Assembly: GCA_032718475.1 (NCBI GenBank)
Contig: JAUCBJ010007173.1
Span: forward strand, 171,916-235,915
DNA length: 64,000 bases
Direction of reading: 5' to 3'
Source: Nemertoderma westbladi
Taxonomy: Eukaryota; Animalia; Xenacoelomorpha
How positions within the stretch are numbered: the first letter of the stretch is position 1; the number at the start of each line of letters is the position of its first letter. Below the pieces are notes generated by a model. It was given only the letters and a program-made list of their open reading frames with translations, ran no database searches and was not told the DNA's origin. Both the position numbers and the translations under genes were made by a program. Of this stretch, positions 2,816-46,163 are shown one piece after another.

Positions 2816-2820
2816 ACATT

Positions 2821-4760: not shown

Positions 4761-6685
4761 AGAAGTGGAATTGAATCCGCTTACAACTTCGTTGTGGCCC
4801 TAGATCCCAAAAAAGGTAAACTAAGGATGGTGGTTGATGCTTCCGCCAAGACAAACGGCAAGTGTCTCAATGACTACCTATTACAGGGTCCCAATATCTA
4901 CAACTCGGGGATTGAAGTTCTGTTAAGATTCAGGAATGGAAAACACGCCTTCACATGCGATATAGAGGGCATGTTTAACCAAGTTCAGGTGAAGGAGGAG
5001 GATAGCGATAGTCAATGCTTCCTATGTTACAATGGTGACGATGAACCATCAACTATACTAATGTATAAGATGGTGGTCCAGAACATGGGGGCCAAGTCTT
5101 CTTCATTCATTATGACCACAGCAGTGAGAGACACAGTTAAGGACAAGGATCGAGGATGAGTATAGCAAGGAAGCGATCAACATGATTCGACGCAGATTCT
5201 ACGTGGATGATGGAATGGGTTCAGGGAACTCCGTTAAGGAGATCATCGAGATGGGCCGCGAAGTTCACGACATCCTGAAGATCAGGATTCAACTTGACGA
5301 AGTTCCAGTCGAATCCAAAGAATTCATGGAAGCCATAGAGGACATACAAACTGAAGAAAAATTGGATAAACCAATGACAGTGAAAGAGCAGATTATGGCG
5401 GACAAAAGAGTAGAAACACAGCAGAAAGCTCTAGGGATCGTGTGGAACCGGGAGACAGACGAGTTGGAATACCAGCTAAGTCAGGAGGGTGCCGGGATCC
5501 ATACAAAGAGAGGCTATGTGTCATACATAGTGAGGATCTACGATCCACTAGGACTAGCATCTCCTTTACTAGTCATGGGGAAACAAATACTCAAGAAGGT
5601 TTACAAGATTAAGGACGAACTTATAGTATGCCACGTGTATACTTCCCGGATGGAGACTTGAGTGATTTGAAGCTACATATGTTCTCCGATGCATCACTGT
5701 AAGCATACGGTGCGGCGCTTTATTTGGTACAGTGAAAAGGGACTCATAAGCCCAGACTAGCGTTTAGTAAAGCGAGGTTGATGCCACCAGATTCAGCATC
5801 AGTACCGAAACTCGAACTAACAGGTGCGAGGTTGGGAGTGAGAGCGACAGGATATTTGGTAGATACGATACCAAGTATAGTGGAGACACTCTACTGGACG
5901 GATTCCATGGTGGTGTTAGGATGGCTGCATAAAGAGTAAACGCGCTATCCTATATTCATAGCGAACCAGGTGGATGAGATAAGAGCGATGATGGACTTGG
6001 ACAAGTGGCATTACTGCCTGAGGGGGAGGAGATATTCAGCCAGTTAGCGAGGATGATTAAGGAGGCGCCATCACAATCTTAGATGATAGAGTCGAGCGAT
6101 AACCCAACGGATAGGCTACTCGGTTACAGCACTAGCTGGTATAATACGTAGAAGTTAGTGGCATATCTGAGAGAGAGGAGCTGGTACAGAGGGGAAACCC
6201 AAACCTACCATTGATTTGGAAGAAGCAGCTAATGCAGTAATCCAATACGAGCAAGGGAAGGCATTCGGAGACGAAATTAAATGTATTAAGCAATCAATAA
6301 CTTCTCCGACAGGACAGCAGGATCCATGCGCTGTCGCCACAACTGGATGAGGATGGAATCCTGGTCATAAATTCCAGGGTGGCTAATAACACCAGTGCCT
6401 TGGTTCCACCAAAGCCAGTAATGATCCCTAACCAGTCACCAATAGTTCACCAGATCCTATGGGACACCCATAAGACCATAATTCACGGCGGTACTAAAGT
6501 GACCTTAAACGCGATCAGGAGGAAATAGTGGGTGACTCAACTTAGGAAAATGGTGAAGGCAGTAGTGGGGCAATGCATGCTGGCGGATGAAGAATGAGAG
6601 GGCCGTGCAAGAGATGGCACTGCTGCCAACCTCTAGGGTGAGACATCACGACCCACCGTTCACGCATAATGGCATGGACATGTTA
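4761..6685 (+). mobile_element. Old BEL/Pao pol fragment (RT, RNase H, start of integrase), decayed
   Basis: KLRMVVDASAK...CLNDYLLQGPN, CDIEGMFNQV, FYVDDG, KALGIVWN, TKRG...YDPLGLASP, FSDAS, PKLELTGA, YWTDS, MALLPTSRV...PFTHNGMD: Pao-type signatures, with many frameshifts. Confidence 0.9.
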
Positions 6686-8292
6686 GTTCGGGATATCTTG
6701 ACAACTCATCAATCATTATCAGGGCATGATCGCCAGTGGGAAATGGTCCACAAAAATCAAGAGAGACTTTCTGGAATGGGTACTCTGGAAGGGGATTCAT
6801 TTGCAGAGGAAGGCGATGGATTGATGGTACAACAACTTTACAGGACAAGCAGTGATGGACCATATTTTCGACTTTTCTGTCGAGGCATGGAAACCAACAT
6901 GACTGTCTAATGAAAGCTTTGGTTTTTGAAATACCTTGGTGTCCTATATGAGAATTCAAAAGCATAGCTTCTTCTAGCTATAGGGGGATAACTACAAGGA
7001 CTAGACCATCTAGAAACGTTAGTTTGTCTTTCACATGGAAGAAAGGGCAGAGCTGTACATCATTTTCTCTTTCAATCCAGTTTCTAGAGGTTATTGCTTT
7101 ACTCAGTTTCTGGAGACTATTTTGCCTACATTCTCGTATATCCTTTAAGGTAACAGCTTCGTTTACAGATGATTGGAATAGAGCATGAACATGATTAACA
7201 ATGTCATCCTCAAAAATATTTGCAGAGGCATCTGAAAATAAAGGGTGTCGAGATAAAAAGTCACTGATATTCTGCTTGCCTTTTACATATCTCACCGAAT
7301 AATTAAATTCCTGGAGGTACATTAGGAACCGTTTGATTCGTATAGACATTTGTTTCAAAGGGCTCATCAACAAGATCTCAAGGGGTTTGTGGCCAGTGAA
7401 TATGGTATAGTGCATGCCTAGGATATAACATCGGAAACATTCGGAACCCCACTTTGCAGCCAAGCACTCTCCTTCGATTTGGCTGTATCGGGATTCAGCT
7501 GACGTAGTGGATCGTGAGGCAAACATTCGTGGAATCCATTGGTTGGTTTGCTTATCATATTGAATAAGTGTTGCCCCGAGTCACTATTATGGAAATCTAC
7601 ATGGAGTTCTGTTTGGGCATGAGGATCATAATATCCAAGAAGGCAATCATCGGAGATAGATGACTTGAGTTTATCAAATGACTCCTGTTGTAGTGGTCCC
7701 CATTAGAAATGTTAAGGGATCGAAGGGGAGCTGTTAGTTTAGCCAACTCGGACATAAACATGCGAGATGCCCCTACCATTGCAATGAGCGATCGATCGCA
7801 CATCTTCTTTGCTTATGGGGGCTGGCATCATTCGGACAGCAGATACTTTTGATGGATCTGGTTTTATGCCTTGTGGCATAAGTATTACACCAAAAAACTT
7901 AACTTCAGTTGCATGAAAAATGAATTTGGATCGTTTTAAGGTAACCCCACCATCGACGAATCGTTTCATAACAGCACTCAGAGCCGCATTCATTCGACCA
8001 AAGATTATTATATCATCTGATATGTTTCGAGCACCTCTAATACCTGCAATCAAACGTCGGATTTCGCGATCAAACTCATCCTAGGCAGATGCTAGTCCAA
8101 ATGGGAGTCGTTTGTATCATTTATTGGTGATATGCGTATAAAAGGTGGTGAGGTGACGGCTTTCTGGTGATAATTCTAGCTAATCTTTGCTCCATTAACT
8201 GCAAAAAGGATGTTGTCTAAGGTAGGAAGATCGTTCTTGTTGCGGAGGACAGCCTTGTTTACTGCACGGCAGTCGAGACAAAAACTTATGGC
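6686..8292 (-). mobile_element. Old Gypsy pol fragment (RT, RNase H, integrase N-terminus), no LTRs seen
   Basis: ARNISDDIIIFG, RYSQIEGECLA, HKPL, NISDFLSR, SHIGHQGISKTK...C.SC, SLDFCGPFP...IDELSRYPE. Confidence 0.85.
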
Positions 8293-8509
8293 TGTTATGT
8301 CTTTCAGTTTGAATATAATGAACATATAATAGTCATATAATAATTCCATATAATGTATAGTTATATGTACCGGTATAGCAGTATTCCATGTAATGTTACA
8401 TGGGGACTGTCAGGCCATTCCACATACCGCCATACCCAGCCACCAGCTGACTATCCAATATAGATTGCTAAGCAACCATGTAAAATAATAATATATCTAA
8501 GATATCACA
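8293..8509 (-). repeat. 3' LTR of the Gypsy element (217 bp)
   Basis: TGTTATGTC...GATATCACA, matching 13229-13438 with several substitutions and indels. The adjacent 8510-8520 reads AGAAAGGGAGA on the minus strand (PPT). Confidence 0.95.
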
Positions 8510-8619
8510 TCTCCCTTTCTCCGAGATCAAATGAGTTTAAATGTTTTATATAATGTTATAAAAACCCATCACCGGATTTATGTGAGATTGGTCTATAGAA
8601 TAGCTATGTTTTGGGGATT

Positions 8620-11600
8620 CTAGATTATGGTGGTAGCACCAAAATGTACTAAGGGTCTTTGTGAATGCTCGCTGCATCGGGGTTGTAATGCTAGGGGTTC
8701 GTTCGGGGTAGTTTCGATTTTGTTTGGTTGTGGGTTAGGTGTTCGTTCAGTTTGGATGGGTTGTGTTGTGTCTTCCCATAGGAAACGGTGGTTGCGCCAC
8801 CAAACCCGTCCCGATGGGAGTTTAACTCGATAGTCCCGTTTTGGACCCGCGCTGATCACGGTCCCTGTACGCACCCAGTTCCTTTTTTGAGGGTCCTGGA
8901 TATGGACCAGCATCCCCACTGCTAGGGGGCGCAGGTCGTTGGTGGAATGGTTGTATTTCTCTTCGGCCTCTAGGCAGAAATTCGCTGCACGTTGGTCGAT
9001 TTCGTCTGCCTTCTCCTGCCACTGTTGTGAGTAGGCAGAATGATGTGCGGGAATTCTAGAACGCAGTAGTCTCCCAAAGACTATTTCATTGGGGGCACGC
9101 CCATTGGCGTGGGGGGTGTTTCGAATTTCGAGTAATCCGGTTTTGAATTCTTCAGAGTGTATAGAGTTTCGGGGAACCTTCCGGAGGAGGTGTTTCACAA
9201 GTTTAACTGCGGCCTCCGCGTGTCTGTTGCTGGATGGGAAATGCGGGGTACTTGGACTCCAATTGACACCCCAGCGTTGGAGGAAAGTGTCAAATGAAGA
9301 GGCGGCAAACTGTGTTCCCCCATCTGACCTGAATTTAGTTGGGATTCCTAAGTTTACAAACCATGGTCTAATGACGTTGGAGATGTCCTTGGATATGGGA
9401 TCATGTCGCCACTCGTGGACCATGGGGTAACCGGATAGTCTATCGATGTAGACAAGGTAGTGGTTTCGACTGATTGAGAATAGGTCGGCGGACACGGATT
9501 CGAAGGGGCGCTGTGGTAACTCGTCCGTTTTAAGTGATTCTCTCTGGAGACTCGGTCGGAGTTCCTGACATGATTCACAGCGACTAATAGTTAGTTCGAT
9601 ATCCCGATTCATTTCGGGCCAGTACACTGCCTGTCTCACCCATTGTTTAGTACGCGTCATCCCTTGGTGGGAGGCGTGTAGACGGTTGAGGATCTCTGGT
9701 TGTAGATCTGTTGGGACGTCAATGTGCCGGCCATATAAAACTATGTCATTAGTAATCGTGAGTTCGTGGGCGATTGAGTTGAACTTCGTCACATATGGAG
9801 ACGGTTTCTGCCCAGATCGGAAGTTATGTTTTATTTCCTGTATGAGTTCCTGGTAGTTAGGATCTTTAAGCCCGACCATTCGGAGTTCCTCCAATACCGG
9901 ATCCATGTTGGCGTCCTCTGCATTCTGGTTAGACAGGATGGAGAAAATGGATGCGATTATAATTGGTTCGATATTTCTGGAGTCATCGTCCGGAGTTGGA
10001 TCGACCACAGGTGAGCGGCTGAGGCAGTCCGCGATACGATGCGACTTCCCTTTAGTCCAGACGACTCGGAACTGGTATTGCGATTGTAGGTCTGCTTTGA
10101 TCCGTTGTATCTTCAAGTTCTCGATCTGCGTGATATTATAATCGTTGAAAACCGTAACGAGCGGTCTATGATCACTGACCACCATAAATGTTGGAAGCCC
10201 AGACAAATAAACCCGACATTTATTTATCGCAAAGTGGATCGCAACTGTCTCGAGTTCGAGTGCTGAGTATCTGGTCTCCGCGTCGGAGATGAACCAACTT
10301 CCACAGGCAACTAACTTCCATAGGTTGCCGTGGAGTTGAAGTAAGTCGTAGCCAAACCCGTGTAATCGACTGGTGTCGGTTTCCAGACGTGTCTCGGCGC
10401 CGGGGTCGAAGGTTGCTAGGATAGGGGTTGTATGAGGGCGTGTTTAACATTAAGGAATGCCTCTTCGTGGTTGCTAGTCCAGATGAACTGGTTTCGGGTT
10501 CGAAGAAGATCTCGTAAGGGGGTTGCGGCGGTACTAATTTCGCTACTAAAGTGTCCAACTTTGTTGACTAACCCCATGAAGCTGTGGAGGTCCGTTATGT
10601 TGCTGGGTGTTGGGAACTCTCCGATGGCCTTTACTTTCTCTGGGTCGGCTTCTATCCCATTCGTGGATACCCAGCGAATTTTACGCTTTGCTTGGCGAAT
10701 TGAAATTTGGATGGGTGTAAAGTAATTCCGCCATCGCGGCACTTACCGAGCACTGTCCGGATGTCGCTGTATGTGGTCCTCGAGAGTTTCGTCTTCAATT
10801 ATGATATCGTCCATGATTTTATGGACATGAGGAATGCCGTCGAGGGCCATATCACCGCGGAAGTTATAGGAGTCGCCCGCTGATATAAAGCCCATGGGCG
10901 CCCTGCAGTAGTGGAACCTTCCCCACGGGGTCAGGAATGTAGTGTAGTCCCGGGATTCCTCGTCGAGTTCTACCTGCCAGTACCCACTTTTAGCATCGAG
11001 GGTAGTGTAGAATTTTGCGCCGGACCTGTGAGTTGAGTTTGGTAAGATCCACTGTCATGCGGATCTCCCCCGGGCGGTTCGGATTGGGACAGACCACGAT
11101 TGGGTGGCACCAATCTGTCGGTCTGTCGCCTACCCGCTCAATGATGCCTTTTCACTCCATGTCGAGTAGTTCTCGATATGCCTTCTCCCGATAGGGAAAG
11201 GGAATTGGTATCGCAGCGTACAGGCAGAATGGAGTCGCATTATCAACGAGTTCGATCGTCATCGGAGGCCCAACCATTGTTTGAAGGCGGCGACCATCCT
11301 TGGCGAATACGTCATCGAATTCCTCCATGAGTTTAACTTTAATCGTTTCGGTGTCATCCCGTGGTGTAGTTATTGAGTTTATAACCGAAGTCGTAGCGAT
11401 TGGTGTAGGGAAATCTGGATGGACGACCCCGAGACCCTTACAGGCAGTTAGTGACAGGTAGATGTCACTCCCCAGATCCGGACAGATATAAACCCACTCC
11501 TTGTGGAGTTTATTTTCGATAGATAGCTCCAACTGGACCATTCCATCGCAGTTGATACGGTCGCTATTTACAGATTCCAGCGGTAAATTGGCTTTAATAA

Positions 11601-11658
11601 TTTTCGCACATTTTGGGAGTTCCAGTTCATTCATAACGTTGGTTCCCGCTGCAGTCAC
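8620..11658 (-). pseudogene. Gypsy pol (protease end, RT, RNase H, integrase) with frameshifts; integrase ORF 8620-10206 still open
   Basis: LDAKSGYWQ, PMGF, IMDD, SDHRPL, ADCLSR, LHASHQG...C..C, SADLF, SDGGTQF, HAEAAVK. Confidence 0.9.
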
Positions 11659-11693
11659 CTTAGTGCCGGTGTCTGCTATGCAGCATTTGTTTC

Positions 11694-13085
11694 CTATATA
11701 TTCACCGGATTTGAAGAAATCAATGGCGATAAGCGGCTTGTAACGATCCTAGTGCCGGTGTCTGCTATGCAGCATTTGTTTCCTATATATTCACCGGATT
11801 TGAAGAAATCAATGGCGATAAGCGGCTTGTAACGATCCTTGGTGTAACCGCCAATGTCTGCTATTTGGATAGCGCCAGTTTTTTGGGGATGTTTTGATTG
11901 GAAACACTGTGAGGCGAAGTGGCCGGATTTTCCACAGTTTTTACAGTTGTGACCACTGGCCTTGCACGGTTTATGTTCGCCATGGGGCCAGTCACCTCCA
12001 CAGTATAGACAGAGGCCCCGCTCCTTGGCGTGGCGTATCGTTTTCATAACCGACTCCCTGTTGTTGGAGTTAGAACGGGCGGTTGATGGCAACCGATTGC
12101 GTCCATCGTTTTTCCCGCGTTTATGACTGCTGCTACGATTCCACGGCCTTCGAGTTTGATTTCCGGCGGTGCGCCCAGAGTTACCAGCCTGGTCCTCCCT
12201 TCTATTAATTGGACAGACTCGTTGGTTTCTAAGCAGCTTAACGTCCTTAGCTGCTGTTTCCCTAGCTCGGAAGAAGTCCAGCGTTTCCTCTCGGGTTAGA
12301 GGAGGGTGCTTTGTAAATATCTCCTCCGGGGATTCATCATCTCTGACTCCACGGATAAGGATTGTTTTTATCCAGTTGTCCGGGGTCATCGCATTGAGCT
12401 CTGCGTCCTCGGCTAGTTCACAGCGGCGTACATAGTAGTCATCAAACGTTTGTCCTTCAGCTTGTTTAAGTTCAACCAGTCTGTGTCTGTCCACCACGAT
12501 GTTGCTCTCTGCTCGGAGATATGTTCGTATCTCATCATGGATTTGCCGCAAAGGTTTGTCTGTATCGGGAGGGATGTTGAGACAGTGGTGGATACGGCTG
12601 AGAAACGCGGGCGTGCAGTTGGAGAAGAAGATAGCTGTTTGGTCTCCTAGGGGTTTGGAATCAATGTGTATAATTTTACAATAGTTATTCCACTGCACCT
12701 CCCAGCGCTTGTAACGCTGATAATTGAAACGAGTGTCGAGTTTATCGGGGACTCGGGCCGTGTATTTAACCCCATCACGCCCCCTGGCATCGGCATTTCG
12801 ATCCAGTATCAATGCGTTGCTGGTGCCGTATCTGCTTAGGTTAAGCAGTTCAAAGAGTTCCGCTCGCTCTGCTGCCCGTTCTGCAGCACGGATGCTCTCC
12901 CGACGTTCGTCCTCTTCGATCCGTTCCCTTTGCAATAGGGCCAGGATTTCCCCCAGGTTTGGGTTTATGGAAGGAGGTGGTGTTTCGCCCGATATCACGG
13001 CGGATAATTGTTCGTGCAGAACTACTGTTGACGTTTTACTGTTAAATTTGACGTCGGCATTTCGGCAGTGTACGAGGAGAACCAC
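11694..13085 (-). pseudogene. Gypsy Gag plus protease start
   Basis: LKQAEGQTFDDY, CLYCGGDWPH...C and CKNCGKSGHFASQC knuckles, ADTGT protease motif. An 89-bp tandem duplication (11661-11838) shifts the frame. Confidence 0.85.
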
Positions 13086-13216
13086 GCGATCGAGTTCGTT
13101 GATCTCCTCGAGGGTGAGGTCCAGTGGATGAGGTAAATAGCGGTAGCCATTTACCGGTAGTTGTGTTTGTGGGTGTATTTATCCCTCAAAGGTTCATTAG
13201 CCGAATTGGCTAAAAA

Positions 13217-13228
13217 CACACTGCGCCA
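13217..13228 (-). promoter_or_regulatory. Canonical tRNA primer-binding site TGGCGCAGT (tRNA-Ser-like)
   Basis: Begins with TGG directly after the 5' LTR. The tRNA identity is from recalled invertebrate tRNA-Ser 3' ends and was not checked. Confidence 0.8.
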
Positions 13229-13438
13229 TGTTATGTCTTTCAGTTTGTTTATATAATGAACATATAATAGTCAAATAGTCATATAATGTATAGTTATATG
13301 TACCAGTATAGCAGTATTGCATGTTACATGGGGACTGTCAGGCCGTACCACATACCGACATACCCAGCCACCAGCTGACTATCCAATATAGATTGCTAAG
13401 CACCCATGTAAACATAATAATATATCAAAGATATCACA
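13229..13438 (-). repeat. 5' LTR of the Gypsy element (210 bp)
   Basis: Direct repeat of 8293-8509. Confidence 0.95.
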
Positions 13439-13565: not shown

Positions 13566-14226
13566 GGGATTCTAAAGTATGCAAGGGAACCACCAGGAAA
13601 GAATGGAGTAAGTTTGTCGATTCGGTGGAGAGGAGCGGATATATGGTTCTGGACGATGAGGGGACCATAGAGGATGAGGATAGGACGAGGAAGGGCTCAG
13701 GGGGGTTGGGTAGAACTATATTGCTGCATCTAACTGCGCTGAATGGAGATATTTTTCTGTTCGACCTGGGGACCTACGGCAAGAAAGACGTATCAAAGTT
13801 GAACCATCTACCGGATGTGGTGCAGAAGCTGGTGAGATCGAAGACTACGATCAAGATTGGATCGGCGATATGCGACAAAACGGAGAGGATTATTGGACTG
13901 AACACCCTGAGTCTTGCGGATACACAGGTAGTCTATATGGCTATGATGAAGCCAGATGGATTAGGACTGGTGCATATCACGGGACAATACTGAGCTGTAG
14001 TGATGGGTCAGCTGATGAGACTCGTATGCAACAAGCCAATGGAGTGGAAGAAGTTCCGAGAAGAGTTTGTAGCGGAACTGACGGATTCACTCAAGTGGGG
14101 CGCGAGACCAGTGAGGGAGAAGTTGTATCACTTCCAAAGGGGGGCGATTAAGACATACCAGAAGAGTTATATCTTACAGGAGGACTGGATAATGATTGGG
14201 TTAGTGAACCTATTCATCACGGTGGT
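13566..14226 (+). pseudogene. DEDDy-type (WRN/EXD/RNase D-like) 3'-5' exonuclease ORF, 5' part, interrupted by a BEL insertion
   Basis: MVLDDEG (ExoI DxE), LLHLTALNGDIFLFDL, LPDVVQKLVRSKTTIKIGSAICD (ExoII), ADTQ, WGARP...QKSYILQED (ExoIII-like). One in-frame stop at 13991-13993. Recognised by motif pattern only. Confidence 0.65.
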
Positions 14227-15447
14227 TGTAAAAGCTTTTGCGGAATTGCCCGGTTATTTTCCCCGTAAAGTACTCTGTAGTTGGTTTAGCAGGCATAAAA
14301 GGCCGTGTCATTGCTGTACCGGTGTTTTTAGGGGACATAAAAGTTATTTCTTCTGTATGTGTACTTTGGAGGACATGATTAGCAATTCTATGACGCAACG
14401 CCCTAGATCCTCTTGAAACAGTGTCGTTACTATGACGACAGCTAACGGCTGAGCTTTACACGTGTAGCTTGCCCGGAGCCTTGCCTTGGTTCTTTGTTCT
14501 GCTCAGCTCAAAATGACGACATCTATCAGCTGTGTCCACGTGGAGCCTTTTGCCATTCGACCAATCAGAGATTCCCTCTTTGTTGTAAAAGCTGTACAGC
14601 AGAATTACAGGATTCAGTACTGACGTTTCCCCCACGCCTAGAACACCGGCCGGAGAATGTTTTCTGACATTAGAGCGTCTTTAATTATAAGATCATCAAA
14701 CGGTTATCACGGTTTTGCACCTCGGCATCTGATTAAGCATCCTGACGTAAACTGCTTTTCGCCGCATTATTTACTGCTATTTACTGTGTTGTTAATTGTA
14801 TCGTTCGTTTACTTATTATTATTGGGAAGAATATTGATAACGATCCGAAAACCCAATCTTCTTGATACACTAAGGTTAGAGAGACCAGTTACATATAACA
14901 ATTTGCGACATACATTATCGTGGTTTGTAGTGAGTTCAATGCTACTTAATAGGCCCTACAAATGTCGGTTGTTATTCTCTTTATATATGATTAAAATCAG
15001 TGAATGTCGGCAATTCAGTGTGCAGTTGTGTGCAATAGTCTGTGTGTGCTTGACCGAGTAACAAAGCATTTCCTAAAGAATGCACTTTGGTGATCTATAA
15101 GACATACTGTTGTGTATAGTGTAAGTCATAGCTCTGTTTAAATAGATAGAGCGCCACGTCCTAAAGGAACTGCTAATATTTCCCGAAAGTGAATAATATT
15201 CGTCAGAGATTATATATTAACGATCAATCGAATAGTACGGTAGGCCTGCACCGCAATCAAATTAAAGCATCCAAATCCAGTCTCCCGGGTATATCCAGCG
15301 GGTGAATGGTCGCGCACAGACTGGCTTTGGCTAATGTTAGAATTATTATAGGTGTTCAATACTTGTCATAGGCTGGAGTAGATTTATAACCTAGAAGACA
15401 TATAGATTTGGCGGGTTAAACTGCCTAAGGTCTTAAAAGCGCAAACA
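14227..15447 (+). repeat. 5' LTR (1221 bp); candidate TATA-like TGTAAAA ~14584 and initiator TTCAGT ~14614
   Basis: Direct repeat of 25835-27055. The promoter assignment is inferred from motif spacing. Confidence 0.95.
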
Positions 15448-15458
15448 ATAACCGTTTG
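15448..15458 (+). promoter_or_regulatory. Non-tRNA primer-binding site candidate, complementary to LTR 14697-14707
   Basis: ATAACCGTTTG is the exact reverse complement of CAAACGGTTAT; no TGG start. Confidence 0.75.
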
Positions 15459-15801
15459 TTAAATTCTTGATTGCAGTGTAGGCAATAAATACAGTTTAAT
15501 ATTGTTCTGGTAAGAACAATAACAGTTTGAAGGATCTTGATTGCGGCGTAAGCGATCAAGACTAAAGTACCGGTCGACCGGTAACCAGTAGGCTTGACTG
15601 CCTGATCATCCGGACCGGTACTTACAACAGTACAGGTACAGCAGTATTATTCGATTTTGATAATTATATACCGGTAGGTCTTGATATTAAATCGGGGACT
15701 GCAGCCCTGGTTTTTTATTGGGATTTTTACTTATTTCTGTCAGTTTTATTTACTAGTAGGCTAATATTGAGCAGAAAGCGTGTAACCCTGCTCAGATTGT
15801 A

Positions 15802-16383
15802 CAGATAATTTGAGGCTGAACTGTTGTTCTGACTGTTGTTAGGCCTGAACGGATTGCAGTGCATGTAGAGTGTATGTCCGATAAAGAACGGTTAGGAAGT
15901 AGGGGCAGCCAGGCTGTAAGGTAAATCCCCACCTAAAGAATAAGTCGTACTACTAGGTTAGAACGCATACTACCTAACCATTTCGGAGTCTGCATGTCCT
16001 GTAGTTTATTTAGGCTTGATAGTAGTCTGCCAGCGTTTGGTCTGTACTTTGTTTGTGTAGTCTGTACAGGTACCGTAATATTTCTTATTCAGATAATTTA
16101 TAGGCTAGATTGTTGTCTGGCTGTTGTTGGGTCTGAAGGGATTGTAGTGTGTGTAGAGTATCTGTCCGATAAAGTGACGGTTAGGAAGTAGGGGCAGCCA
16201 GAGCTGTAAGGTAAATCCCCACCTAAAGAATAAGTCGTACTACTAGGTTAGAACGCATACTAACTAACTATTTCGGAATCTGCACATACTGTAATTTATT
16301 TAGGCTTGATGGTAGTCTGCCAGCATTTGGTTTGTAATTTGTTTGAGTAGTTTGTACGGGTAGCGTAATATTTATTATTCAGA
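15802..16383 (+). repeat. Two tandem ~288-bp structured repeats in the BEL 5' UTR
   Basis: Units start at 15802 and 16090. The central ~100 nt is nearly identical; the flanking arms are self-complementary. Confidence 0.85.
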
Positions 16384-17309
16384 GTTTATGCGATTATTCG
16401 CAACATTCATATCCCTAAGTTTATTCCTACAGTAATTGTGCTTGTTATATATACCGTTATAGTTAAATTAACCCCGGTACTACACGGGCTGCTTGGCGTA
16501 GGTAAAGACTGGTGATGTTGTGTACCGGTCACTCCAGCAGATGCCGTGGTTCTTTGGCTGTTCAAGTATTTTTAACTACTGATTATTTGTTGTACAAGTA
16601 CTTGTACCTAATTTAGGGTTTGGTGTACAGTGCTTTCCGAAAGTAATTAGCGTGTAGGCAGTGTATTGTGTTGTAAAGTGGTTAATAGGCACGTTGGATC
16701 TGGTAGTCCGCGGTAATTAACTTCTAGGTAGGAACACTCCGTGATACATAACGTAGTACCTATAGCGATACGGCTATAGGTCGTCAGACGGTGGTATTTT
16801 TCCTATCTGGACAACGCAGTATATTGACTACTGCTTTATTATTCTCAAATGCCGTAGTATCCTGTCAGTTGTAATAACCAGAAGTTCTAACAATTTGTTA
16901 GACTGGTTTGTAGTTTCCCTGTAAAATTAACCCTAAAAAATTCGTACGTAATATTTTTGTTGTGTTTAATTAGAGATTTAATCTCACCCGTATCGTAAGT
17001 AATTCGTAGATAAGTAACTTAGGAAGTAGAATTATTTGTTTTAGTGTCCAATAAGTAGCACTTCACTGAGAGCGCACAGCTTTTGTGTAGTGATTACTTC
17101 CCAGAAATAATAACATCTATTTCAATATTGTAACAAAACCCCTCATACGGGTACATATAAATCCACTAAATCTATTAATAAAATAGTAGGCCTGTTATAC
17201 AACACTTAGGTCTTAATATCAGTTGGACTGCTGCTCAAATAACGGTAATAAAGTGAGTAAAGTAACCAAGTAACCCCTAACATTCAGAAATTCAATTATT
17301 CTAAAATAA

Positions 17310-17620
17310 TTGACATACCGGTATTTACAATAGACTTATTATATTTATTCTATAAATTTAGGCTGAAATTATACCGGTATTCTGTAATTAATTCTAGTCC
17401 AGAATTATACTTATATCTACTATAAGTGTCAGCTGTATACCGGTATTCACGATAGGCCTATTATATATTTATATATATTTGTGCTAAAATTACATACTGG
17501 TATTCTGTGATAAATCTAGTCTGAAATAATACTTATGTATACTATAAGCATACCGGTATTCTAATATATTTTATATATATACCATGTTATACTGAGTAGC
17601 AGTATCGGTAATTAATTATT
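17310..17620. repeat. Degenerate AT-rich tandem repeats with an ATACCGGTAT palindrome about every 60 bp
   Basis: Motif copies near 17315, 17371, 17437, 17495 and 17550. Confidence 0.6.
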
Positions 17621-17698
17621 AGGCTAACAGTGATACTGAATTACTAGACTTACTTTAACTGTATTTATAGCCATAGGCATTCAACTGTGTAAACAAAC

Positions 17699-20600
17699 AT
17701 GTCAGACGCAACCCAATCACTGTCAGATAGTCTCTTAGAAAGTGTTAGAATGAGTATTAGACTTAGACAGCGTATTAAAAGGATCTGTGACCAAGATCAA
17801 AGTATAGAACATCCTAGATCCAAGTCTAAGTCACCTACTATTGTAAGAAAGGCCATCCCTACAGTAGTAGTGTCAGACCCTAAGGCTAGTAGAACACCGT
17901 AGGTCTATCATCGGCACTCGGGCCCAAGTCAAGCGGGATCAAGAAGCAGCTATCAAACAGCAGCAACATCCTAGCCAAGAACCTAGTTTTCAGCGGCCCG
18001 ATAGCTCCAGTAGTTCGGATACTGTTGAGCGGACGCCCGAACGCGGAGCGAAGATGGCGGATACGGTTTATGATGAAAGGCCAACCTATGAAGAATCAAC
18101 CGACGCCACTTCTTCTCAAGTGGAAAGCGAAGTGGAAAGCGAAGTGGAAAGCGAATTAACAGCAGCAGAGAAGCCGCGAACTAGAGACGCCATTGACATC
18201 TATCTGTCAGACTATCAGCGATTCCTAGGAGACGAAGAGTTGAGGAGACGACTGTCTGGACTTCGCCCTAATAGTGAAGGAACCAAGCTTGTGTTGGACT
18301 CAATCGATGCGGAAATGTTAGCTGCAAACCAAGCTAAATTTGATGAAAAACTCCGCCTCGCTAGAGTCCAAGAAGAACAAGTAAAGAAAAAACGGATAGA
18401 GGATCGAAAGGCAGCAGCAGTAGCAGCGGCAATGGCAGAAGCAGAAGTGGAAAGAAAGGCGGCAGCGGCAATGGCAATGGCAGTGGCAGAAGCAGAACGG
18501 AGAGCGTCTGAGGAGACTACCCAACTGGAGTTGGAAAATCTGCAAGAGACGCAAGACTGCATAAATAAACAGTTAACTGCTAGTCAAATGCAGATGATGA
18601 GTCGATCTACTCCCAAACGCCAAGAATACACATCATCGGAGGAAGGCGAAACCACCAATCCTGAAGGCGGAGGAAATAGATCTCGTCTAAGCAGGCGTAG
18701 AAAAACATCTCACCGTCACAAATTGCCTGATTTGCCCCCAGCTGTTAGAAGACAACTAGCTAGCACAGACTTAGGTAGTACAGAACCCACAGACCAAATT
18801 ATTAAGGTCAAAAGACTCCCCACGATAGTAGATGAGCCTGAAATAATTAGGCCTGTCGTTCCCAAAGCCACTCCTGTGCTAGAGACCCCTGTACTTCCAG
18901 AGCTTAACTCTAAATTCCCTCTACACAGTACTACACTGCCTGTACCCGGTAGAACAGTCCATGAGAATATCCCTGTCCTGGACGCTGAGAGAGAAATCAA
19001 AGATTTGTCTCCCGTCGTCCCGCGTCTGCCCGCTACAATGTTGGCGACTCCCGCTTCGGCGGTCGAGTGGGTAGAGGAGGGACGGCGGGGGATGAATCTC
19101 CTGCTCGGACAGATGCAGGAGACTGTCCACCAACTCAAGGGAACATTAAGGGAAAGTAGGGTAGAATTGCAAGAAGTGCAGCAAAGCATCGCGCTAGAAC
19201 GCGACAAATTAGTCAATATACAAAAGGGTATACCAATACCCCCTGTAACATAGTGTCAACCTGTTAGGTCTGAAGTATTACATGCGCAAGGTGTGGAGCC
19301 TACACGCATCTATACTGCTAGTGAAGTAGAAACTCCTATAGCAAACCCTATTAAGGGTGATTATAAACCTGTTGTTGATGATATTCCCTATAGACCTGAT
19401 AATAATCCGGGAAATTTATATACCGATAATTCGATATTAAATAACACGATGGCCCAAGAAAGCTTTACGCGTCAATGGCTAGAACAGAAGCCCGCCAAGC
19501 GGTCAAAGTGGGAGAAATCGTCAAATTCAATGGAGATGAGATGAAATGGTTACCTTTTAATGAATATTACAAAGATAGCATACAGAACTCTGTACTATCT
19601 AACGGAGAGAAACTTAGATTCCTCATCAAGTGCTTGGAAGGACCTCCCAAGTTAATGGCGTTAAAGTTTATTGGACATCCAGATGGATTAAGACAAGTTT
19701 GGGATACATTAAACATCAGGTATGGTAACAAGGATAACATAGCTAAGTATTTGTATGCAAAATTAGTAGCCCCCCGAAAGTTCCTTAGTAGCGGGATTAT
19801 AGAGTTTTCCGATGAGATTCAGGAGATCTGTAGACAATTGGATTGGTTAGGTAAGTCTCATGAATATCAGAGTTCCATGGTTATTGGAGCCATAGTCTCT
19901 ACTTTACCAAAGGGTGGAGTATGTACACGCTGGGACAAGAAAGTGTTGTATATGAATGAGCAGCAACGACGAGGCCCTACCATGGCTGATCTCATGTCCT
20001 TCTTAGATAGTGAAGTAAAATTACAACTCATAAAGCAGTCCAGAGAGAAAACATCGGAAAATAAGGTAAGTGAGAAACCCGTTTCTAGGAGAAGGGTAAC
20101 ACCAGTGTGTTATACTGACGACGGCGAAAGCCAAGCTTCTCAAGAAGAGGACAGCGGGAAAGACACAGCAAAATCTTACTATGACAACAAGACCTATAAA
20201 GACGTAAGTAAATATAAGTCTCGAACCAGTGACAGGAGAGAACAGGTAACAACAACTCCTCCTACATCTCCTAAGAGAATTCACGGAAGAAAGCCCGAAG
20301 AAAGAACGAGAGTGCATAACGTTACCCAAGGTAAAGTGAGTAACATCAAACCAAAATGTGCGCTGTGCGACGGGCCCCACCGTTTGAGTGTGTGTGCTGA
20401 ATTCCTAAAGAAATCCCTGGTAGACAGACGTGAAGTCATGTGGCATAAGCGGTTATGCTATAATTGCCTCAGACAAGGACACCAACGGCGAACCTGTTAC
20501 TCCGACGTAAAGTGTGCAAAGTGTGGTGCGAAACATCACATCTTGTTACACAGTGAATTCGAACGAAACAACCCGAGTCAGGTAAGTGAGCCCGAACTAC

Positions 20601-21790
20601 ATGTCCAATTCAGTGATGTAAATGACACTGATCAAGAATCTGAGATGGAAGGATTCTATACGGACGAATTCTCCGACGCCAACGAATCCTGTTACCTAAT
20701 AAATACCGCAGTGTATCGAGCACTTACGTATGAAAAGGACACCGACAATGAGTTCCCCCCAACTACCTTTGACAGACAACCATCTTGGAAACCTCCAACT
20801 TCCAACGTAGGAATCAGAGAATTTCCTGTAGTGCAGGTAAGAGTTCACGGTCCTAACAAAAGTTACATAGTGAACGCCCTCCTTGATTCCGGCAGCACAG
20901 GAACATTCATCGATCAAGAACTAGCCGAAGACATCTTTGCTGGACAACCCAAATTCCGAACTAAGTTGAATATGTCAGGAATTATGCAGGTTTGGAAATC
21001 TACCATAATGGCAGATTACTATGTAGGTGCGTTGTCCACCCCCCAGGATAAATTAGGAGAACAAAGTATAAGGTCAGTAAAAATGGTGGCTATAAAGAAC
21101 TTCGCTACTACCCAAGTAGAACCTTATAACTGGGACGAGGACGAGAGCATCCAGCAGCTTAAGATACCTCGATTCCACACAGATTATCCTGGAGTGCAAA
21201 TACTCATCGGCCAAAACGCGCATGAGGCGCTAGAGACATTGGAGAAACGGCCTGCTCAACCACAGCCACTACAAACCTATGCGGTAAGAACTAGAGTAGG
21301 TTGGTACTTCACTGGCCCTTCCCGTAGAACTCTCAAAGAGAGATTACCTCAAGAACAGGTATACCAAGTAAAGGAATGGGAAGTGGAGAGCAGTGAGGTG
21401 GACGACCCAACTGAGGGAACACCATACTCCTCAGATAATGACGATATTAACTCCAATGTAGATCAATGGAGACATTGCCTTGGGACGATTAATCCAACCG
21501 ATATTGCTTCCAGAGGAGCAACTCCTCAAGAACTGATAGATACTCCAGGCTGGTTAGGTGGATCCGACTTCTTAAGTAAAGAAGAAGAAGAATGGCCTCC
21601 TCATCTTACCACGGCGGAGATTAGACAGGCCAAGGGAGTGGAGAAAGTAACACAACAACTCAATAACCCAGCTGGTCGTTTATGTTTACTGGAAAGAGAC
21701 CGAAAACTGTCCGGAAACTATGGAAGGCAAGATACTCTTCCTACGACCACTTCCCTAATCCGACAAATATCTAGGGACTCCATAACGTAA
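17699..21790 (+). pseudogene. BEL Gag-protease polyprotein, broken by stops and frameshifts, fused to a short post-RNase H remnant
   Basis: KFNGDEMKWLPF...EKLRFLIKCLEGPP (Pao Gag), CALCDGPHRLSVC / CYNCLRQGH...C / CAKCGAKHH knuckles, ALLDSGS, RTRVGW, then a direct jump to QWRHCLGTINPTDIASRG. Confidence 0.9.
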
Positions 21791-23344
21791 TAACATATGG
21801 AGTGGGCGTGTGACTATATCATTTTATATTTGTTTTTATTTTATATTTATGTATGTATTATTATGTAATTTTATTATAATCGTTTTCTTTAATTTTATTT
21901 AGTAGAATGTTATTTTAGTGATTATTTAGTAGATTAGTGCAATATATTAGTGTTTATTACGTACGTAATTACTTATAATATATATTTAGTGCGACGGCGA
22001 GAAAATATTATTTTTTCTCTTTCCTTACTGTCCGTATCATATTACTAGAACGCCATCAAGATGGCTTTAAACGAACCTGTCTTACACAGACTCCAAGAAA
22101 CAGATGGGATTGGAAGATGCAAACCAAGAATGACTTGCATCAACCAAAAAACTGCCTCCCATCTAATGTAATACACATTCGCCTAGGCAAACAAATCATA
22201 ATCACAATTACTACGATGATGTGTGAAATGGTATCCATATCCGCAACCTGAGAAACGGCCCAAAAGAGCAGTTTATTCTGCGGAGGGGTCTTTTCTGTAT
22301 TAGATAAATAAAATAAAGAACACTATAATTACAGTATTTATACCTGATACATTCTCAGTTAGCCTAATAAAAACATCGGAGCAACCAATATAATGTACAT
22401 GTACAAGCATCCTATGAAAGTTTGTGAAATGTTCCCTTAAGTCTACCCAACAGCCGTTGGTACCCGGCTGGCAGCCACCCTGGTTCAGTTTTATGGTTTT
22501 GTTAGTTTAATCGACAGCTGTTGTAAACGTCCCAGATATACAAAACCTACTAAGCCTTTGCATTACAATTGAGCTTAGCCTAAGTTGATGACAGTATTAT
22601 AACGATAACAATTAGGCCCTATAGATACATACGATATATAAATGATGTACTGCTTGACATTACACTAACTGGCTGAATAGAGATAGAACTATAATAATAC
22701 GTTTGGCATTCTGTCAGATTTCAGTAGTAAGTAACCTCATAATAATTGCTAAATATCAATCACCTGAAAAACATTTCAAGCAAGGGAGTTGTGGGTATTT
22801 AATTTCGCGTTCAATAATGTTGAAAATATGCAAATATTTCGAATATCGCACTTCGAATCGTTCCCAACTTTTTTATTCAACAACTAGACAACAATTGATA
22901 AATACTTGCGTTTACAATTTTACAATGCATGCAAGTGGTTTCAAGCCATTTGGTGAACATACATAGTGAGTGATATAGTGACATATAATATAGTGATATA
23001 GGTAAATATATCCATCGTGTTTTTGCCAGCCTCAGCTTTAGACAAAAACTACCCAGTCTAAAGACAGGTTCGTTATAAATACGTGACTACAGTAAAATGA
23101 AATGTCCGTACTTATTAAAGTACAATAAAGCCACTACTATATTCAAGTATTATTGGTAGGCAGAGTATTAGGAATGCAAAGTTCAGATCCTCGTGTCTCG
23201 GCTAAACCAAGCTCTGGGTAGACCTTGGAAACGACTTGCCTCTTCACACTGACAGTGCTTCGTGCGATATTGCTCTCATACCATATATAATAATACATAT
23301 AGTAGCGTGATGTCCCTCTAACAGTAGCGTGAAACGCAAATAAA

Positions 23345-23660
23345 TCTGTTAAACCTTTTGACCATCTGTAATTCTAGTCGATTAAGATATCGCGGCACCC
23401 ACCGATATAGTTGAAAGACAAATTCTAGAATCAGTGGTTAACGTCCCCAGACGAGTTCTGGAATAAATTGGTGCCCATCTCAAATATTAATTATTTAATA
23501 TTTATAAATCTATAAATCAAAATCTGTAAAATTCAGATCCTTTAACAATTCTAGTCGATTAAGATATCGTAGCACTTACCGATACTCTTAAAAGACAATT
23601 TTCATAGAATTAAGGATCCTATGTCCCCAGACCTGCTCTGGAATCAAATTGTGTCAATTG
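23345..23660 (+). repeat. Two ~177-bp diverged direct repeats in the BEL 3' region
   Basis: AATTCTAGTCGATTAAGATATCG near 23370 and 23548; GTCCCCAGA...TCTGGAAT in both copies. Confidence 0.8.
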
Positions 23661-24464
23661 CACTATCAAATAATAAAATTTCAGGGAATAAATTTGAATT
23701 CATATTTTAATGAATTTAATAAATTGTCATTCTGTGCAATTTATAACATTCCCAAAATCCCATTAATTAATAGATCACGGGAGCGGAGATTCATCCTATT
23801 AAGTGTGTTAGAGTGTAAGAATCTCCCATGTATGAGTCAATAGCCGATAAAATTTATAAAATCATATATAAACGAGATATTGGACCATTAAAGAATTACT
23901 ATTAAATAGCATCCCAGATCTGTATGCATTGGAATTACCCTAATTCTACCGCTAGCTTTCCATAATGTCACCATAGTAACACCCACGCTAGAATTAGAAG
24001 CAAGTTAAAAAGAACAATAGAAAGCTTGCCCCATTGCATAGTAAGAAATAAATAGCGCACTGCTAGTATCCAAGGATACATAATAATAACGTGGCATTCT
24101 GGAAGGCACTGACTAACGGACAAATGGCCCGAGTGTGTGTAATTTGTGACAGTTGTGTGTGTGGAATTTGTGAGTTTATAGGCGAATGTTACTACTAAGG
24201 TGTGTTTACAGTAGCGAGTCGCAATTGTGAAAGTAACCCTAACTCTCCAGTAAGAACCTGAAGTGTATCTAAGCCTTTGGGACGGACAGTGGAGTGACTC
24301 GTGCTAGTGTCGTTGTCGTTGTGTAGCTACACGTTGGCGGAAAACACAGCGGCGACGATACATTTGCGCTGAGGCTCTTACACTGTCCGGGGGCTGATTG
24401 GGGTAGGCAGCGACGCTCGCTAGCCTAATTATAAGCTCATTATAATATTAATAAACTCATATAT

Positions 24465-25808: not shown

Positions 25809-25834
25809 ACTAAAATCCCATTTTCTGGGAGCGG

Positions 25835-27055
25835 TGTAAAAGCTTTTGCGGAATTGCCCGGTTATTTTCCCCGTAAAGTACTCTGTAGTTGGTTTAGCAG
25901 GCATAAAAGGCCGTGTCATTGCTGTACCGGTGTTTTTAGGGGACATAAAAGTTATTTCTTCTGTATGTGTACTTTGGAGGACATGATTAGCAATTCTATG
26001 ATGCAACGCCCTAGATCCTCTTGAAACAGTGTCGTTACTATGATGACAGCTAATGGCTGAGCTTTACACGTGTAGCTTGCCCGGAGCCTTGCCTTGGTTC
26101 TTTGTTCTGCTCAGCTCAAAATGACGACATCTATCAGCTGTGTCCACGTGGAGCCTTTTGCCATTCGACCAATCAGAGATTCCCTCTTTGTTGTAAAAGC
26201 TGTACAGCAGAATTACAGGATTCAGTACTGACGTTTCCCCCACGCCTAGAACACCGGCCGGGGAATGTTTTCTGATATTAGAGCGTCTTTAATTATAAGA
26301 TCATCAAACGGTTATCACGGTTTTGCACCTCGGCATCTGATTAAGCACCCTGACGTAAACTGCTTTTCGCCGCATTATTTACTGCTATTTACTGTGTTGT
26401 TAATTGTATCGTTCGTTTACTTATTATTATTGGGAAGAATATTGATAACGATCCGAAAACCCAATCTTCTTGATACACTAAGGTTAGAGAGACCGGTTAC
26501 ATATAACAATTTGCGACATACATTATCGTGGTTTGTAGTGAGTTCAATGCTACTTAATAGGCCCTACAAATGTCGGTTGTTATTCTCTTTATATATGATT
26601 AAAATCAGTGAATGTCGGCAATTCAGTGTGCAGTTGTGTGCAATAGTCTGTGTGTGCTTGACCGAGTAACAAAGCATTTCCTAAAGAATGCACTTTGGTG
26701 ATCTATAAGACATACTGTTGTGTATAGTGTAAGTCATAGCTCTGTTTAAATAGATAGAGCGCCACGTCCTAAAGGAACTGCTAATATTTCCCGAAAGTGA
26801 ATAATATTCGTCAGAGATTATATATTAACGATCAATCGAATAGTACGGTAGGCCTGCACCGCAATCAAATTAAAGCATCCAAATCCAGTCTCCCGGGTAT
26901 ATCCAGCGGGTGAATGGTCGCGCACAGACTGGCTTTGGCTAATGTTAGAATTATTATAGGTGTTCAATACTTGTCATAGGCTGGAGTAGATTTATAACCT
27001 AGAAGACATATAGATTTGGCGGGTTAAACTGCCAAAGGTCTTAAAAGCGCGAACA
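25835..27055 (+). repeat. 3' LTR (1221 bp)
   Basis: Direct repeat of 14227-15447. Confidence 0.95.
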
Positions 27056-40416: not shown

Positions 40417-43400
40417 CTAACTAGGGCGATTCTTCCAACAGGCACTCTCCCACTGTTGCTCTTGTAGGTCCTGTAGGATTCGCCGCACTCTCTTCGCCAA
40501 TTCCATCTCACCAGGAATTGGTTCTCCCTCTTCTGCCACCCTGAAATTGGGTCTCTCCGCCGCCTTCTTAACTTCCTCCTCTCTTGGCATCAAAATGCCA
40601 CCTCCTTCCTTGTTATCTCCCAGCGGCAGAATGAATAGAAAGTGAAAGAACAGGCAAAACAGAAGGTACGATAATAGACCTATCCCTTTCCATCCTGTCT
40701 TCCTTCTCGACTTCCCCCTTGTCGGTATGCCTCCAAACCGGACTGGCGTCTCTTCCGGACACTCCTTTGGACACTCCTCCGGACTATTGTCCCCCTGACA
40801 CTCCACCGGATACTCTTCTGGAGTGTTGTCCTCCGGACACCTCGCCATCCGCTCCTCTCCATCTCCATACCGATGCTTGCTGGGAAATCCACTCTCCTCC
40901 GCCAATTCTCCTGGTTCTACTTCCCTGTCTGGCTCTACTATCTCCTCCGGCTTCTTGTCTTCGTCCTCTGTGTCTGCGGTGCCTGGTAACATGCACCCTG
41001 ATGTCTCTGTCACACTGCATGGGATCTTGGTTTTAACTGGGCCGCTAAGCGTCCATCCGAACGGCGTGAGGATCGCCGTAGGGTCCCGCTGCCTGTCTTC
41101 GCCGAAGACCGTCCGTGTTCTCTCGTGGGCCGTCGGGCAGTCCATTCCTACTATAATGGACACCTTCCTAACGTCCACCTTTGGTATTGAGAAATCGATA
41201 CCGTCCAGGAATCTATACTGCTCGACCTCAATGTTGGTTGGTCGCCTGGCGTTGATATTTATCGATTCTATGATGTGGATGGGGTCGATCGTCGCCCCAT
41301 AGTCGCATCCCGGTGCAATCGCTGCTATCATGCACCGCCCCGTCCTCGTCTCCAGGACCTCATCTTTACTCGAGACGGTAGTTACCGCCATTCTATTCGG
41401 CCTCGTCTTTAGCCCTATCTCTTCGGCCACCCAGTTCTCCACCAGCGTGAAGGCTGCTCCGCTGTCGACCAGCATTAATGTCGTTACTGATCGACTGCCC
41501 TCTCCTGATATCTTTACTGGTACTACCCCGAGTAGTACTTTTCTCTTCTTCTCCTCTTCTGTCATGCTTGTAGCCATTGTTTGGCCTCCAGTCTCCTCCT
41601 CTCTTGCTGCTGTTTCTCTACACTCTCCGGGTCTGTGTCCTTCTACCACACATTGATGACATAGTCCATTTGCGTCTGTGTAGGCTATACGATCTTGTTT
41701 GGGCAACGCTTGCCAGTGCTTACAACTCCTGGTCTTATGGGTTCCGTCCCGGTGTAATTGACATTCGAATCCTGGATTATAGCGTTCCCTGTATAGTCCC
41801 TCACGTATGGCGCGTAGGTTTATATGTACCAATTTAGTGTTTTGGTTGTCTGTACTCGGCCTACTGGGTATATTGGGATTGTGTTTATTTATGGTGCTAT
41901 TTTCTTTCTGTCCCTGCCACGGTGTGGCCCTACTCCCAGCTAACTGTGGGCTTGTAGCCCCCTGTGTGGCCGCATGTGGTAGCGACTCTCTTACTCTTGA
42001 GAATGGATCCGTCGGATTATGTTCGGGTCCAGGCCTGTTGTATTCTGTCTTTGGTGCCTTCCCCAAACTATCCTCACTATAGACTGGGTCTGTAATTAAT
42101 TCGGCTTCATAGTTTAGGAAGCTCGACATTTCTTCTAGGCCCGGTTCCGCACCTTTCTTCTCTCGAGTGGAGAAGGCGATCTTCCTCCACTTTCTCCGCA
42201 GCCAGATCGGGAGTGCCTGCGCTATCGTGGTGATGTTGTTAGACGCGTTGAGTTCGTATGGTGCGCCTAGCGTCTTCAGTACGATTAACGCCTTCTCGAC
42301 CTTATTCGCAAAGGTCTTTATGCTAACGGGATTATCCTGTAGGCCATCCAATGTTATGCCTCTCAGGGTCTGCCGGATGATCTTGGCTGGGTGCCCGTAC
42401 TCCCTATCTAACGCCCGCCATGCTGTCGTGAAGCCGCCCTCGATGCCCTGGTATTGCCTCACGATGTCGTATGCTGGGCCTCCTGTATATACTTGCAGAT
42501 ATTTTAGGCACTCCGCCTGCGTCAAGTTCTTACTTAATATCTCGTTGCTGTACATGCGCCGAAACTGCAGGTATTCTTCCGGCCTACTTCCGTCAAATTT
42601 AAATGGCTCGACTGGTGGTAACTCGATCCTGGTCTTTAATGCATCGATTAATGTGGCCATTCCCATCGCTTGCGCTTCCAATGGGTTCGATGGATGTTGT
42701 ACAGACTCTCCTATTGGGTGCGGTCCATTCGTCCTATCTGTTGTTGATTTTATTTGTTGCGTCGGATATATCATTGGGGGTAACGGCCCCCTCCATATTT
42801 CCGTGTCGCACGACCTATTCTCGTCCAAGGGGTTCGATGTTCTTGCTCCTATTGGGGTATATTGTTGATATTGTAATGGGGGAATGTCACCCTGTCCCCC
42901 CCCCCACCACCGGTATGTTTGGTACTGGGGTTGATGTTAATATATTGGGGCCCATACATCTATCTACAATAACTCTCCCCTCCCCTGGATATATGTTATG
43001 TCCCTGTGTATTATAGTCATGCTGCTGTACCGATATAGGCCTACCTACCTCTCGCCTACCTACCGGTATGTACTCCACGACTTCCGGGTTTAATCCCGTC
43101 GTTCGCGCTACCCTATCGCCTACTCTATCTCTCCCAGCATGGCCTATAATAGTATGTGCAGTAAGGCCTACAGTATGTCCTGCAGTCTGCATGTGCCCTT
43201 CCGAACCGCAGTTTATTCTTCGCGAATCTCGAATCTCCCCGCAACTACCGTACTCTCGATCGGCAGCTATATCACGTCGGGAAGTTTCCCTTCGATCCCC
43301 TATCCTGCTCTCGTCTTCGTATCGGTACGTCCTGTACCCGTCTCCTGGCGTGCGGTGCGTTTCTCCGGGGCGACGGCAATCTCCCGAAGTTCGACCCCAC

Positions 43401-45589: not shown

Positions 45590-45600
45590 ACTCTAATCAC
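45590..45600 (-). promoter_or_regulatory. Non-tRNA primer-binding site candidate, complementary to LTR 45816-45826
   Basis: Element-sense GTGATTAGAGT pairs exactly with element-sense ACTCTAATCAC in the LTR. Confidence 0.75.
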
Positions 45601-46163
45601 TGTGACGGGATCCACCAAGGATCCCGATTTATCCGGTTGGTTTCTAATCTACGGTCCCCGCCGTGCGTAATGTAAAAGAGTTCCGGTGTTGTTGACTGAT
45701 CGGTGTATATATAATATAGGGTATAATAGTATAAACACAGTAGAAGCTGATATAATGATAAAGTGGGTGAATACCGGTAATGCATTGAACGGTGATGGTG
45801 GCAGTGGACGGAGACGTGATTAGAGTTCCGTTACTACCCTAACTAACTGACTTACTAAGTGAATGGGATAATATGATGACTGGTAATATATATTGCACGG
45901 TTGGCCACGTGGTGTTACTCAGTCGATGCTTTCCCCCCATTGGCTAATATCCTACTTGTCACCCTTTTGCCCCCCTCTGAAGTGCTTCCCTTCGCCCTTG
46001 CTATTCTCTCTCTGTCAGGGGTGTGGCCCCTGACCCCTATTGTGTGTTTCTCCTTCCCACTTTATTGGGGTGACACGAGGTTGGGTAATCAACCTCGTGA
46101 CCCCCAAAATTGCTTAACGGCTTACTTTATGGGTTTGTGTTAGCGGAATTGGATAAGCTAACA
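45601..46163 (-). repeat. 5' LTR; candidate initiator TCAGTT ~45850 on the minus strand
   Basis: Direct repeat of 38714-39275. Confidence 0.95.

Follow-up and report, generated by a model that had tools for sequence, protein, structure and literature searches.

Structure of element A and the surrounding repeats

Two BEL/Pao elements unrelated to each other, named A and B, are found in the window, this being the whole 64-kb stretch of DNA analysed (Table 1). A BEL element had been recognized at 14227-27055 in the first-pass annotation, and this assignment has been borne out by the paired 1221-nt LTRs, the GTGGT target-site duplication and a DUF1759 match (E 8.9e-13) in the 781-codon frame. Comparison of one LTR with the other revealed 9 differences over 1221 nt. 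A representative homolog search with the 781-codon frame yielded 11471 matches among BEL/Pao-like polyproteins, and the RNase H tail matched 52 of the 59 full-length polyproteins included in that bin. Membership of BEL/Pao is indicated by the Gag/protease/pol-type sequence and by the TG..CA LTRs, target duplication and purine tract; a complete pol (RT, RNase H and integrase) is absent. The frame jumps from the protease straight to the RNase H C-terminal tail, and neither RT nor integrase was matched in 21667-25834 by Pfam and polyprotein comparison. The 460-codon frame gave no Pfam match, and the search for near-length homologs of the element A protein returned none among 3823 candidates. Judged from these features, element A is a young, recently inserted and non-autonomous element and, because it lacks RT and integrase, would have been copied by the enzymes of a helper.

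The remaining parts of element A include 4 kb devoid of recognisable coding content (21790-25834), with a diverged 177-nt repeat at 23370-23651, and a 2.4-kb leader with tandem duplications of 290 nt (15802-16383) and 122 nt (17315-17548). Elsewhere in the window, a decayed B-like gag (minus strand, 84% alike to B) adjoins a broken BEL/Pao pol fragment (plus strand) at 2820-6685, and a Gypsy element (8292-13438) is nested within older gypsy-like sequence. Tandem arrays include a 43-nt satellite at 31874-36566 (109 copies, 93% alike) and arrays of 35 nt (37804-38296) and 155 nt (53688-54286). Nested long inverted repeats with arms of up to about 400 nt, located at 49431-54914, are possibly a foldback or MITE-like element.

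Table 1. Coordinates of the features of elements A and B in the window.
Feature	Position	Strand	Remarks
Element A	14227-27055	+	Non-autonomous BEL/Pao element with paired LTRs
Target-site duplication GTGGT (5 bp)	14222..14226 (left); 27056-27060 (right)	+	Beside the element A LTRs
5' LTR, element A	14227..15447	+	1221 nt, TG..CA; 99.26% identity to 25835-27055
Predicted self-primer segment, element A	14697..14707	+	Exact complement of 15448-15458; predicted cut/3'-OH after 14707
Possible proximal helix arm	14712..14720	+	Pairs with LTR end 15439-15446, extending the primer helix
Hairpin near the LTR end (GGCGG/CTGCC)	15410..15425	+	5 bp, one G-U; z -2.5; 4/200 shuffles as good
Primer-binding site (PBS), element A	15448..15458	+	Adjoins LTR end, without TGG
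Tandem duplicate of LTR end, PBS and leader	15515..15585	+	Diverged; local hairpins (15500-15570, z -5.0)
460-codon open frame, element A	17871..19253	+	Probably the N-terminal part of gag, from its position
781-codon frame, element A	19445..21790	+	DUF1759 Gag core, zinc knuckles, aspartic protease, short RNase H C-terminal tail
Short purine-rich tract	25820..25834	+	Ends GGGAGCGG; precedes the 3' LTR of element A; function putative
3' LTR, element A	25835..27055	+	1221 nt; covarying site (26310) reads as in the 5' LTR
Element B	46163-38714	-	BEL/Pao element unrelated to A; non-autonomous, Gag and protease only
5' LTR, element B	45601..46163	-	563 nt; 3' LTR 39275-38714; 5-bp target duplication CAATT
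Predicted self-primer segment, element B	45816..45826	-	Complementary to the PBS of B
PBS, element B	45590..45600	-	Exact 11-nt complement of 45826-45816; letters other than in A
Gag and protease frame, element B	40417..42936	-	24% identity to A over 172 aa

Complementarity between the PBS and the LTR

The exact complementarity of the PBS of element A to its own LTR, which the first-pass annotation had described, was confirmed: it starts at offset 0 from the LTR end and stops at 11 nt. The absence of TGG from this position also held, with none within 8 nt of the 5' LTR end and the first one at 15508. The chance of such a match, previously put at about 3e-4, is 3.8e-4 from the LTR composition, and 7 of 20000 LTRs simulated by a first-order Markov model (about 3.5e-4) contained a match of at least 11 nt. 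In both A and B, the sequence adjoining the 5' LTR is complementary to the LTR of the same element over at least 10 nt, and the PBS of A lacks the TGG start expected of a site complementary to a host tRNA 3' end. No tRNA gene or relevant Rfam family was found within element A, in which two weak miRNA-model matches fell far below threshold, and no tRNA-like sequence was found in it. tRNA genes were absent from the 64-kb window and from the 27 of 81 loci scanned. The Gypsy element at 8292-13438 (minus strand, LTRs about 90% alike), used as a control, carries a TGG primer site and shows a self-match of 3 nt.

A match by chance, or a functionless inverted duplication at the DNA level in a decayed element, draws on the fact that 20 of about 10,350 internal positions of A match the LTR over 10-13 nt (6 of them over at least 11), and that the last two matching letters of B arrive with a duplication. 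Yet the match of A occupies the single position fixed beforehand, recurs in B and in 13 further families and covaries among copies, as described below, and this explanation is close to refuted.

The GGCGG/CTGCC hairpin, previously placed just before the LTR end, does exist, and it ends 22 nt before that end. The second, imperfect PBS copy reported earlier at 15519-15538 is also real, with one mismatch at 15524 and a 1x2 loop. It belongs to a tandem duplication with units of 70-71 nt each (15444-15514 and 15515-15585), the PBS-like part being 15519-15529. Position 15530 is T in most contigs of the same organism, removing one extra pair that had been counted before, and the copy number of the duplicate varies among these contigs, some joints skipping it and others repeating it. 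The role previously given to this copy is not supported, as it is a variable duplicate lying 71 nt from the LTR end; priming there was rejected because the LTR would gain 71 nt.

Covariation among copies of element A and variation in element B

Four contig sets of the same organism (X1-X4, from at most three samples and three studies, with X1 and X2 from one sample) were aligned to 14600-15790. Counts are given as shares of contig depth in short, unphased contigs, and depth is not taken as copy number. Position 14702, G in the window, was T in 6240 of 7855 by depth in X1, in 9569 of 11341 in X3 and in all of X2 and X4. Position 15453, C in the window, was A in all of X1 (7 contigs) and X2 (8 contigs) and in 3265 of 3634 in X3 (5 contigs), X4 having no coverage at this site. 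Both positions are partners of a single duplex pair, G-C in element A and U-A in most copies, so that the check proposed in the first-pass annotation, covariation of PBS and LTR segment among family copies, returned one pair swapped on both sides; this pair is unphased and was found among the 40 differences listed of 172. An assembly error at 14702 is unlikely because both LTRs of element A carry G at the covarying site. The tandem duplicate keeps A at 15524.

If the primer is copied into the new PBS, a change in the LTR should be mirrored in the adjacent PBS and not in a duplicate 71 nt downstream. The pattern found, a change mirrored in the LTR-adjacent PBS and absent from the duplicate, would be what self-priming predicts. 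Complementarity kept by compensatory change was observed as this one unphased pair in the family of A and also across families. Compensatory change at the level of copies provides a test, from sequence only, of which RNA acted as primer.

Element B is young, its LTRs being 99.1% alike, and pol is absent from it. Its primer helix had a predicted probability of 0.88, with an additional 9-bp distal helix, and its terminal hairpin comprises 8 bp (z -3.4). A 9-nt duplication in its PBS was missing from 3 contigs of X1 and from 1 contig of X2, which represents all the depth there, and in copies lacking the duplication the match goes down to 9 nt, plus bulged helices. For a change at 45821 in relatives, no partner change was observed. 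The hairpin and primer region of B was covered by far more contigs than the middle of the LTR.

Other copies carry small duplications and replacements, as well as a 1-nt insertion, that start at or next to the predicted cut sites, at 14707-14725 in A and 45814-45816 in B. These changes could perhaps be footprints of strand transfer.

Recurrence in other BEL/Pao families

Metagenome loci were searched with a 44-protein alignment as query, and the best 80 of 576 confirmed loci were fetched. Eighteen of these were scored, 8 with both LTR 3' ends and 10 with the LTR start only. Locus L004 was dropped due to its ambiguous LTR end, the other unscored loci lacked a whole LTR, and one locus on a viral contig was left out. 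For 6 of the 8 loci with two LTR ends, a match of 10-15 nt to the LTR of the same locus was found: L044 and L005 (LTRs 74% alike) match over 11 contiguous nt, and L010, L025, L078 and L038 (LTR end coinciding with the contig end) over 12, 15, 11 and 10 nt, respectively, across a predicted GT-AG junction. The other two, L047 and L075, carry TGG at offsets 5 and 2 and have no self-match. Random internal positions scored as well in 0-1 of 400 cases for each of the six loci, in 3 of 400 for A and in none of 400 for B. Cross-pairs between elements reached 10 nt in 2 of 110 cases and 11 nt in none of 110. Nine of the 10 loci with the LTR start only have an ACA site matching at least 10 letters (11 of 189 ACA sites versus 8 of 661 control sites), and L030 has none.

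After merging two duplicates, 16 assessable families drawn from the best 80 of 576 loci comprised 13 of self type, 2 with TGG and 1 blank; thus, the comparison with related BEL families that had been suggested earlier found 13 of 16 matching their own LTR with different letters. In 2 of the self-type families the match is contiguous, and in 11 it exists only across a predicted splice junction (L007, L008, L010, L017, L025, L033, L038, L052, L064, L065 and L078), with the predicted GT-AG acceptor 4-7 nt before the predicted primer end and an LTR-end offset that is always 0 or 3. When A and B are added to these 13, the PBS starts with GT or AT in all 15 elements, and the predicted primers end in AC or AT. 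Matches were 11 nt long in 11 of the 15, and the median difference between PBSs was 6 of 10 letters.

A tree of Gag-protease sequences with 34 rows separated 13 self rows from 7 TGG rows by one branch (SH-aLRT 95; 0 of 500 shuffles), 5 of the 7 TGG labels coming from a motif scan without a two-LTR end. Elements A and B form long branches outside the TGG group, their position within the tree not being fixed.

Alternatively, the pairing could represent a helix conserved for structure or regulation and shielding the primer site, the real primer being a host tRNA half or another small RNA. Half-tRNA primers without TGG are described for Ty1/copia lineages in excerpts of PMC6317226, and selection on any helix can yield compensatory change. 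On the other hand, the 15 elements hold 14 distinct 10-letter PBSs, each matching its own LTR, and in 15 of 15 the pairing begins at an offset of 0 or 3 nt from the LTR end, extending over 10-15 nt. Moreover, a host primer of fixed sequence would work against the change at 15453. This alternative is considered quite improbable.

RNA folding and position of the primer in the transcript

In the predicted fold of element A the primer helix had a probability of about 0, and forcing it required 13.7 kcal/mol. The two partners are separated by a loop of about 740 nt in A and by 74-216 nt in the other 14 elements. Probabilities were also near 0 in L033 and L052, 0.08 in L044 and at least 0.6 in 8 of the 15 elements. 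Because the helix is not predicted in A, chaperoned or trans annealing would be needed, and this leads to a different proposal, in which the primer is the element's own LTR sequence acting in trans or from elsewhere: a short 5', 3' or solo LTR transcript, a dimer partner RNA or the 3' LTR of the same RNA. The same segment is indeed present in the 3' LTR at 26305-26315, and the complementarity and covariation data fit this proposal equally well. Nevertheless, the intramolecular helix is cheap (at most 1.6 kcal/mol) in 11 of the 15 elements, or in 12 counting L044 at 1.6, and in the spliced-type relatives a spliced 3' LTR copy would presumably erase the intron from later LTRs, yet the intron is kept. 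A primer acting in trans is therefore judged unlikely.

The proximal arm duplex of element A has an energy of -13.8 kcal/mol, with about 3% of 300 shuffles as good. At P<0.05 with mononucleotide shuffles, distal flanking helices were detected in only 5 and proximal ones in only 2 of the 15 elements. General Tf1-like flanking helices were rejected, as they are missing from most of the 15. Shortening of the loop of A by an intron in the interval from 14708 to the LTR end was likewise rejected, as no pyrimidine-rich acceptor was found there and replication would lose the intron. A TATA-like box was found in 4 of the 15 elements, 77-148 nt before the predicted primer end, and none was found in A. 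In these four elements the primer would form the 3' terminus of a longer 5' fragment and lie inside the transcript, which fits the proposal of the first-pass annotation, made for element A, that the segment is not at the cap.

Proposed mechanism

Self-priming by RNA of its own LTR, as put forward in the first-pass annotation, is supported as the best reading for element A by the two-sided pair change, element B and the 13 families. That the element's own RNA serves as primer in either form, cis or trans, is highly probable, and in element A minus-strand DNA synthesis is likely primed by RNA of the element itself, not by a host tRNA. According to this mechanism, transcription would begin in the 5' LTR upstream of 14697, and the segment 14697-14707 would anneal to 15448-15458, probably helped by nucleocapsid. 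The RNase H of the helper element RT would cut after 14707, as in Tf1, and the freed 3' end, abutting the LTR end, would be extended back to 14708, giving a strong-stop DNA of about 740 nt that would then be transferred. The new PBS would then arise as a copy of the primer, made during plus-strand synthesis. Unlike that of Tf1, the primer is predicted to form the 3' terminus of a longer 5' fragment, and in many relatives to be assembled across a splice junction.

The balance tips slightly towards a wider reading, by which a large, old branch of BEL/Pao elements of aquatic animals would have swapped tRNA priming for an independently evolved self-priming. Here the RT/RNase H would cut the element's own RNA after the AC or AT that ends a duplex of 10-15 nt placed well within the transcript, most families would splice an LTR intron to build this duplex, the intron-less and RT-less parasites A and B would exploit the same enzyme rule, and the primer would rewrite the PBS in each cycle.

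With self-priming demonstrated in Tf1 and predicted in gypsy elements related to it as well as in one copia lineage of plants, BEL/Pao would be the third superfamily. If true, a primer that is internal and often assembled by splicing would alter how the BEL/Pao family is described and explain BEL/Pao elements annotated without a PBS. It would also provide a rule for locating LTR ends and partner elements, and reveal a new RT/RNase H activity on RNA-RNA duplexes.

Comparison with known systems

The nematode BEL/Pao element Cer7 reportedly encodes its own tRNA-like primer with CCA, a mechanism different from that of A. No report of BEL/Pao self-priming was found in the literature searched, the key older papers being outside that scope, and an earlier mention is considered somewhat unlikely. 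By term counts, the terms PBS, tRNA and priming are absent from PMC3118150 and PMC554778. The ICTV describes for the Belpaoviridae an 18-nt PBS for host tRNA-Arg or -Gly and a poorly understood replication (PMC8742986). Element A resembles this family in its DUF1759 Gag, zinc knuckles, protease, RNase H tail and TG..CA LTRs, which reach up to 1.2 kb in the family, and differs from it in lacking the tRNA PBS, RT and integrase (PMC8742986).

In the TAR lineage of plant Ty1/copia elements (Houba, Osr-1), the prediction of self-priming is based on complementarity to the LTR over 10 nt or more, starting 0-5 nt after the LTR (sections of PMC6317226), a pattern that A and B also show. These are copia elements of plants, and the part of that source dealing with them offers prediction only (PMC6317226). 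Fungal GalEa copia elements and bivalve TRIM elements also have no canonical tRNA site, and inverted repeats have been proposed instead; as presented in extracts of PMC6934838, these are local hairpins inside the inner domain, with no pairing with an LTR segment.

The closest description of an 11-nt PBS complementary to the element's own LTR RNA, beside the LTR end and without tRNA, comes from Ty3/gypsy elements, namely Tf1/Tf2 of Schizosaccharomyces pombe, Tj1 of S. japonicus, Tf1/sushi and Tcn1 (passages of PMC7175516 and PMC4600332). The duplex of Tf1 is formed between the PBS and the 11 leading bases of the RNA, and RNase H cleaves between base 11 and base 12 (passages of PMC7175516); in roughly half of the Tf1 cDNA, the PBS that is kept derives from copying of the primer, which is retained (parts of PMC11042837). 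The PBS of Tf1 starts with ATAAC in the same parts of PMC11042837, as does that of element A, which is probably a coincidence. Ty3/gypsy chromovirus proteins, which would indicate membership of the Tf1/sushi group, were not found in element A, whose proteins are of BEL/Pao type. Element A is a BEL/Pao derivative working like Tf1, outside the group of Tf1.
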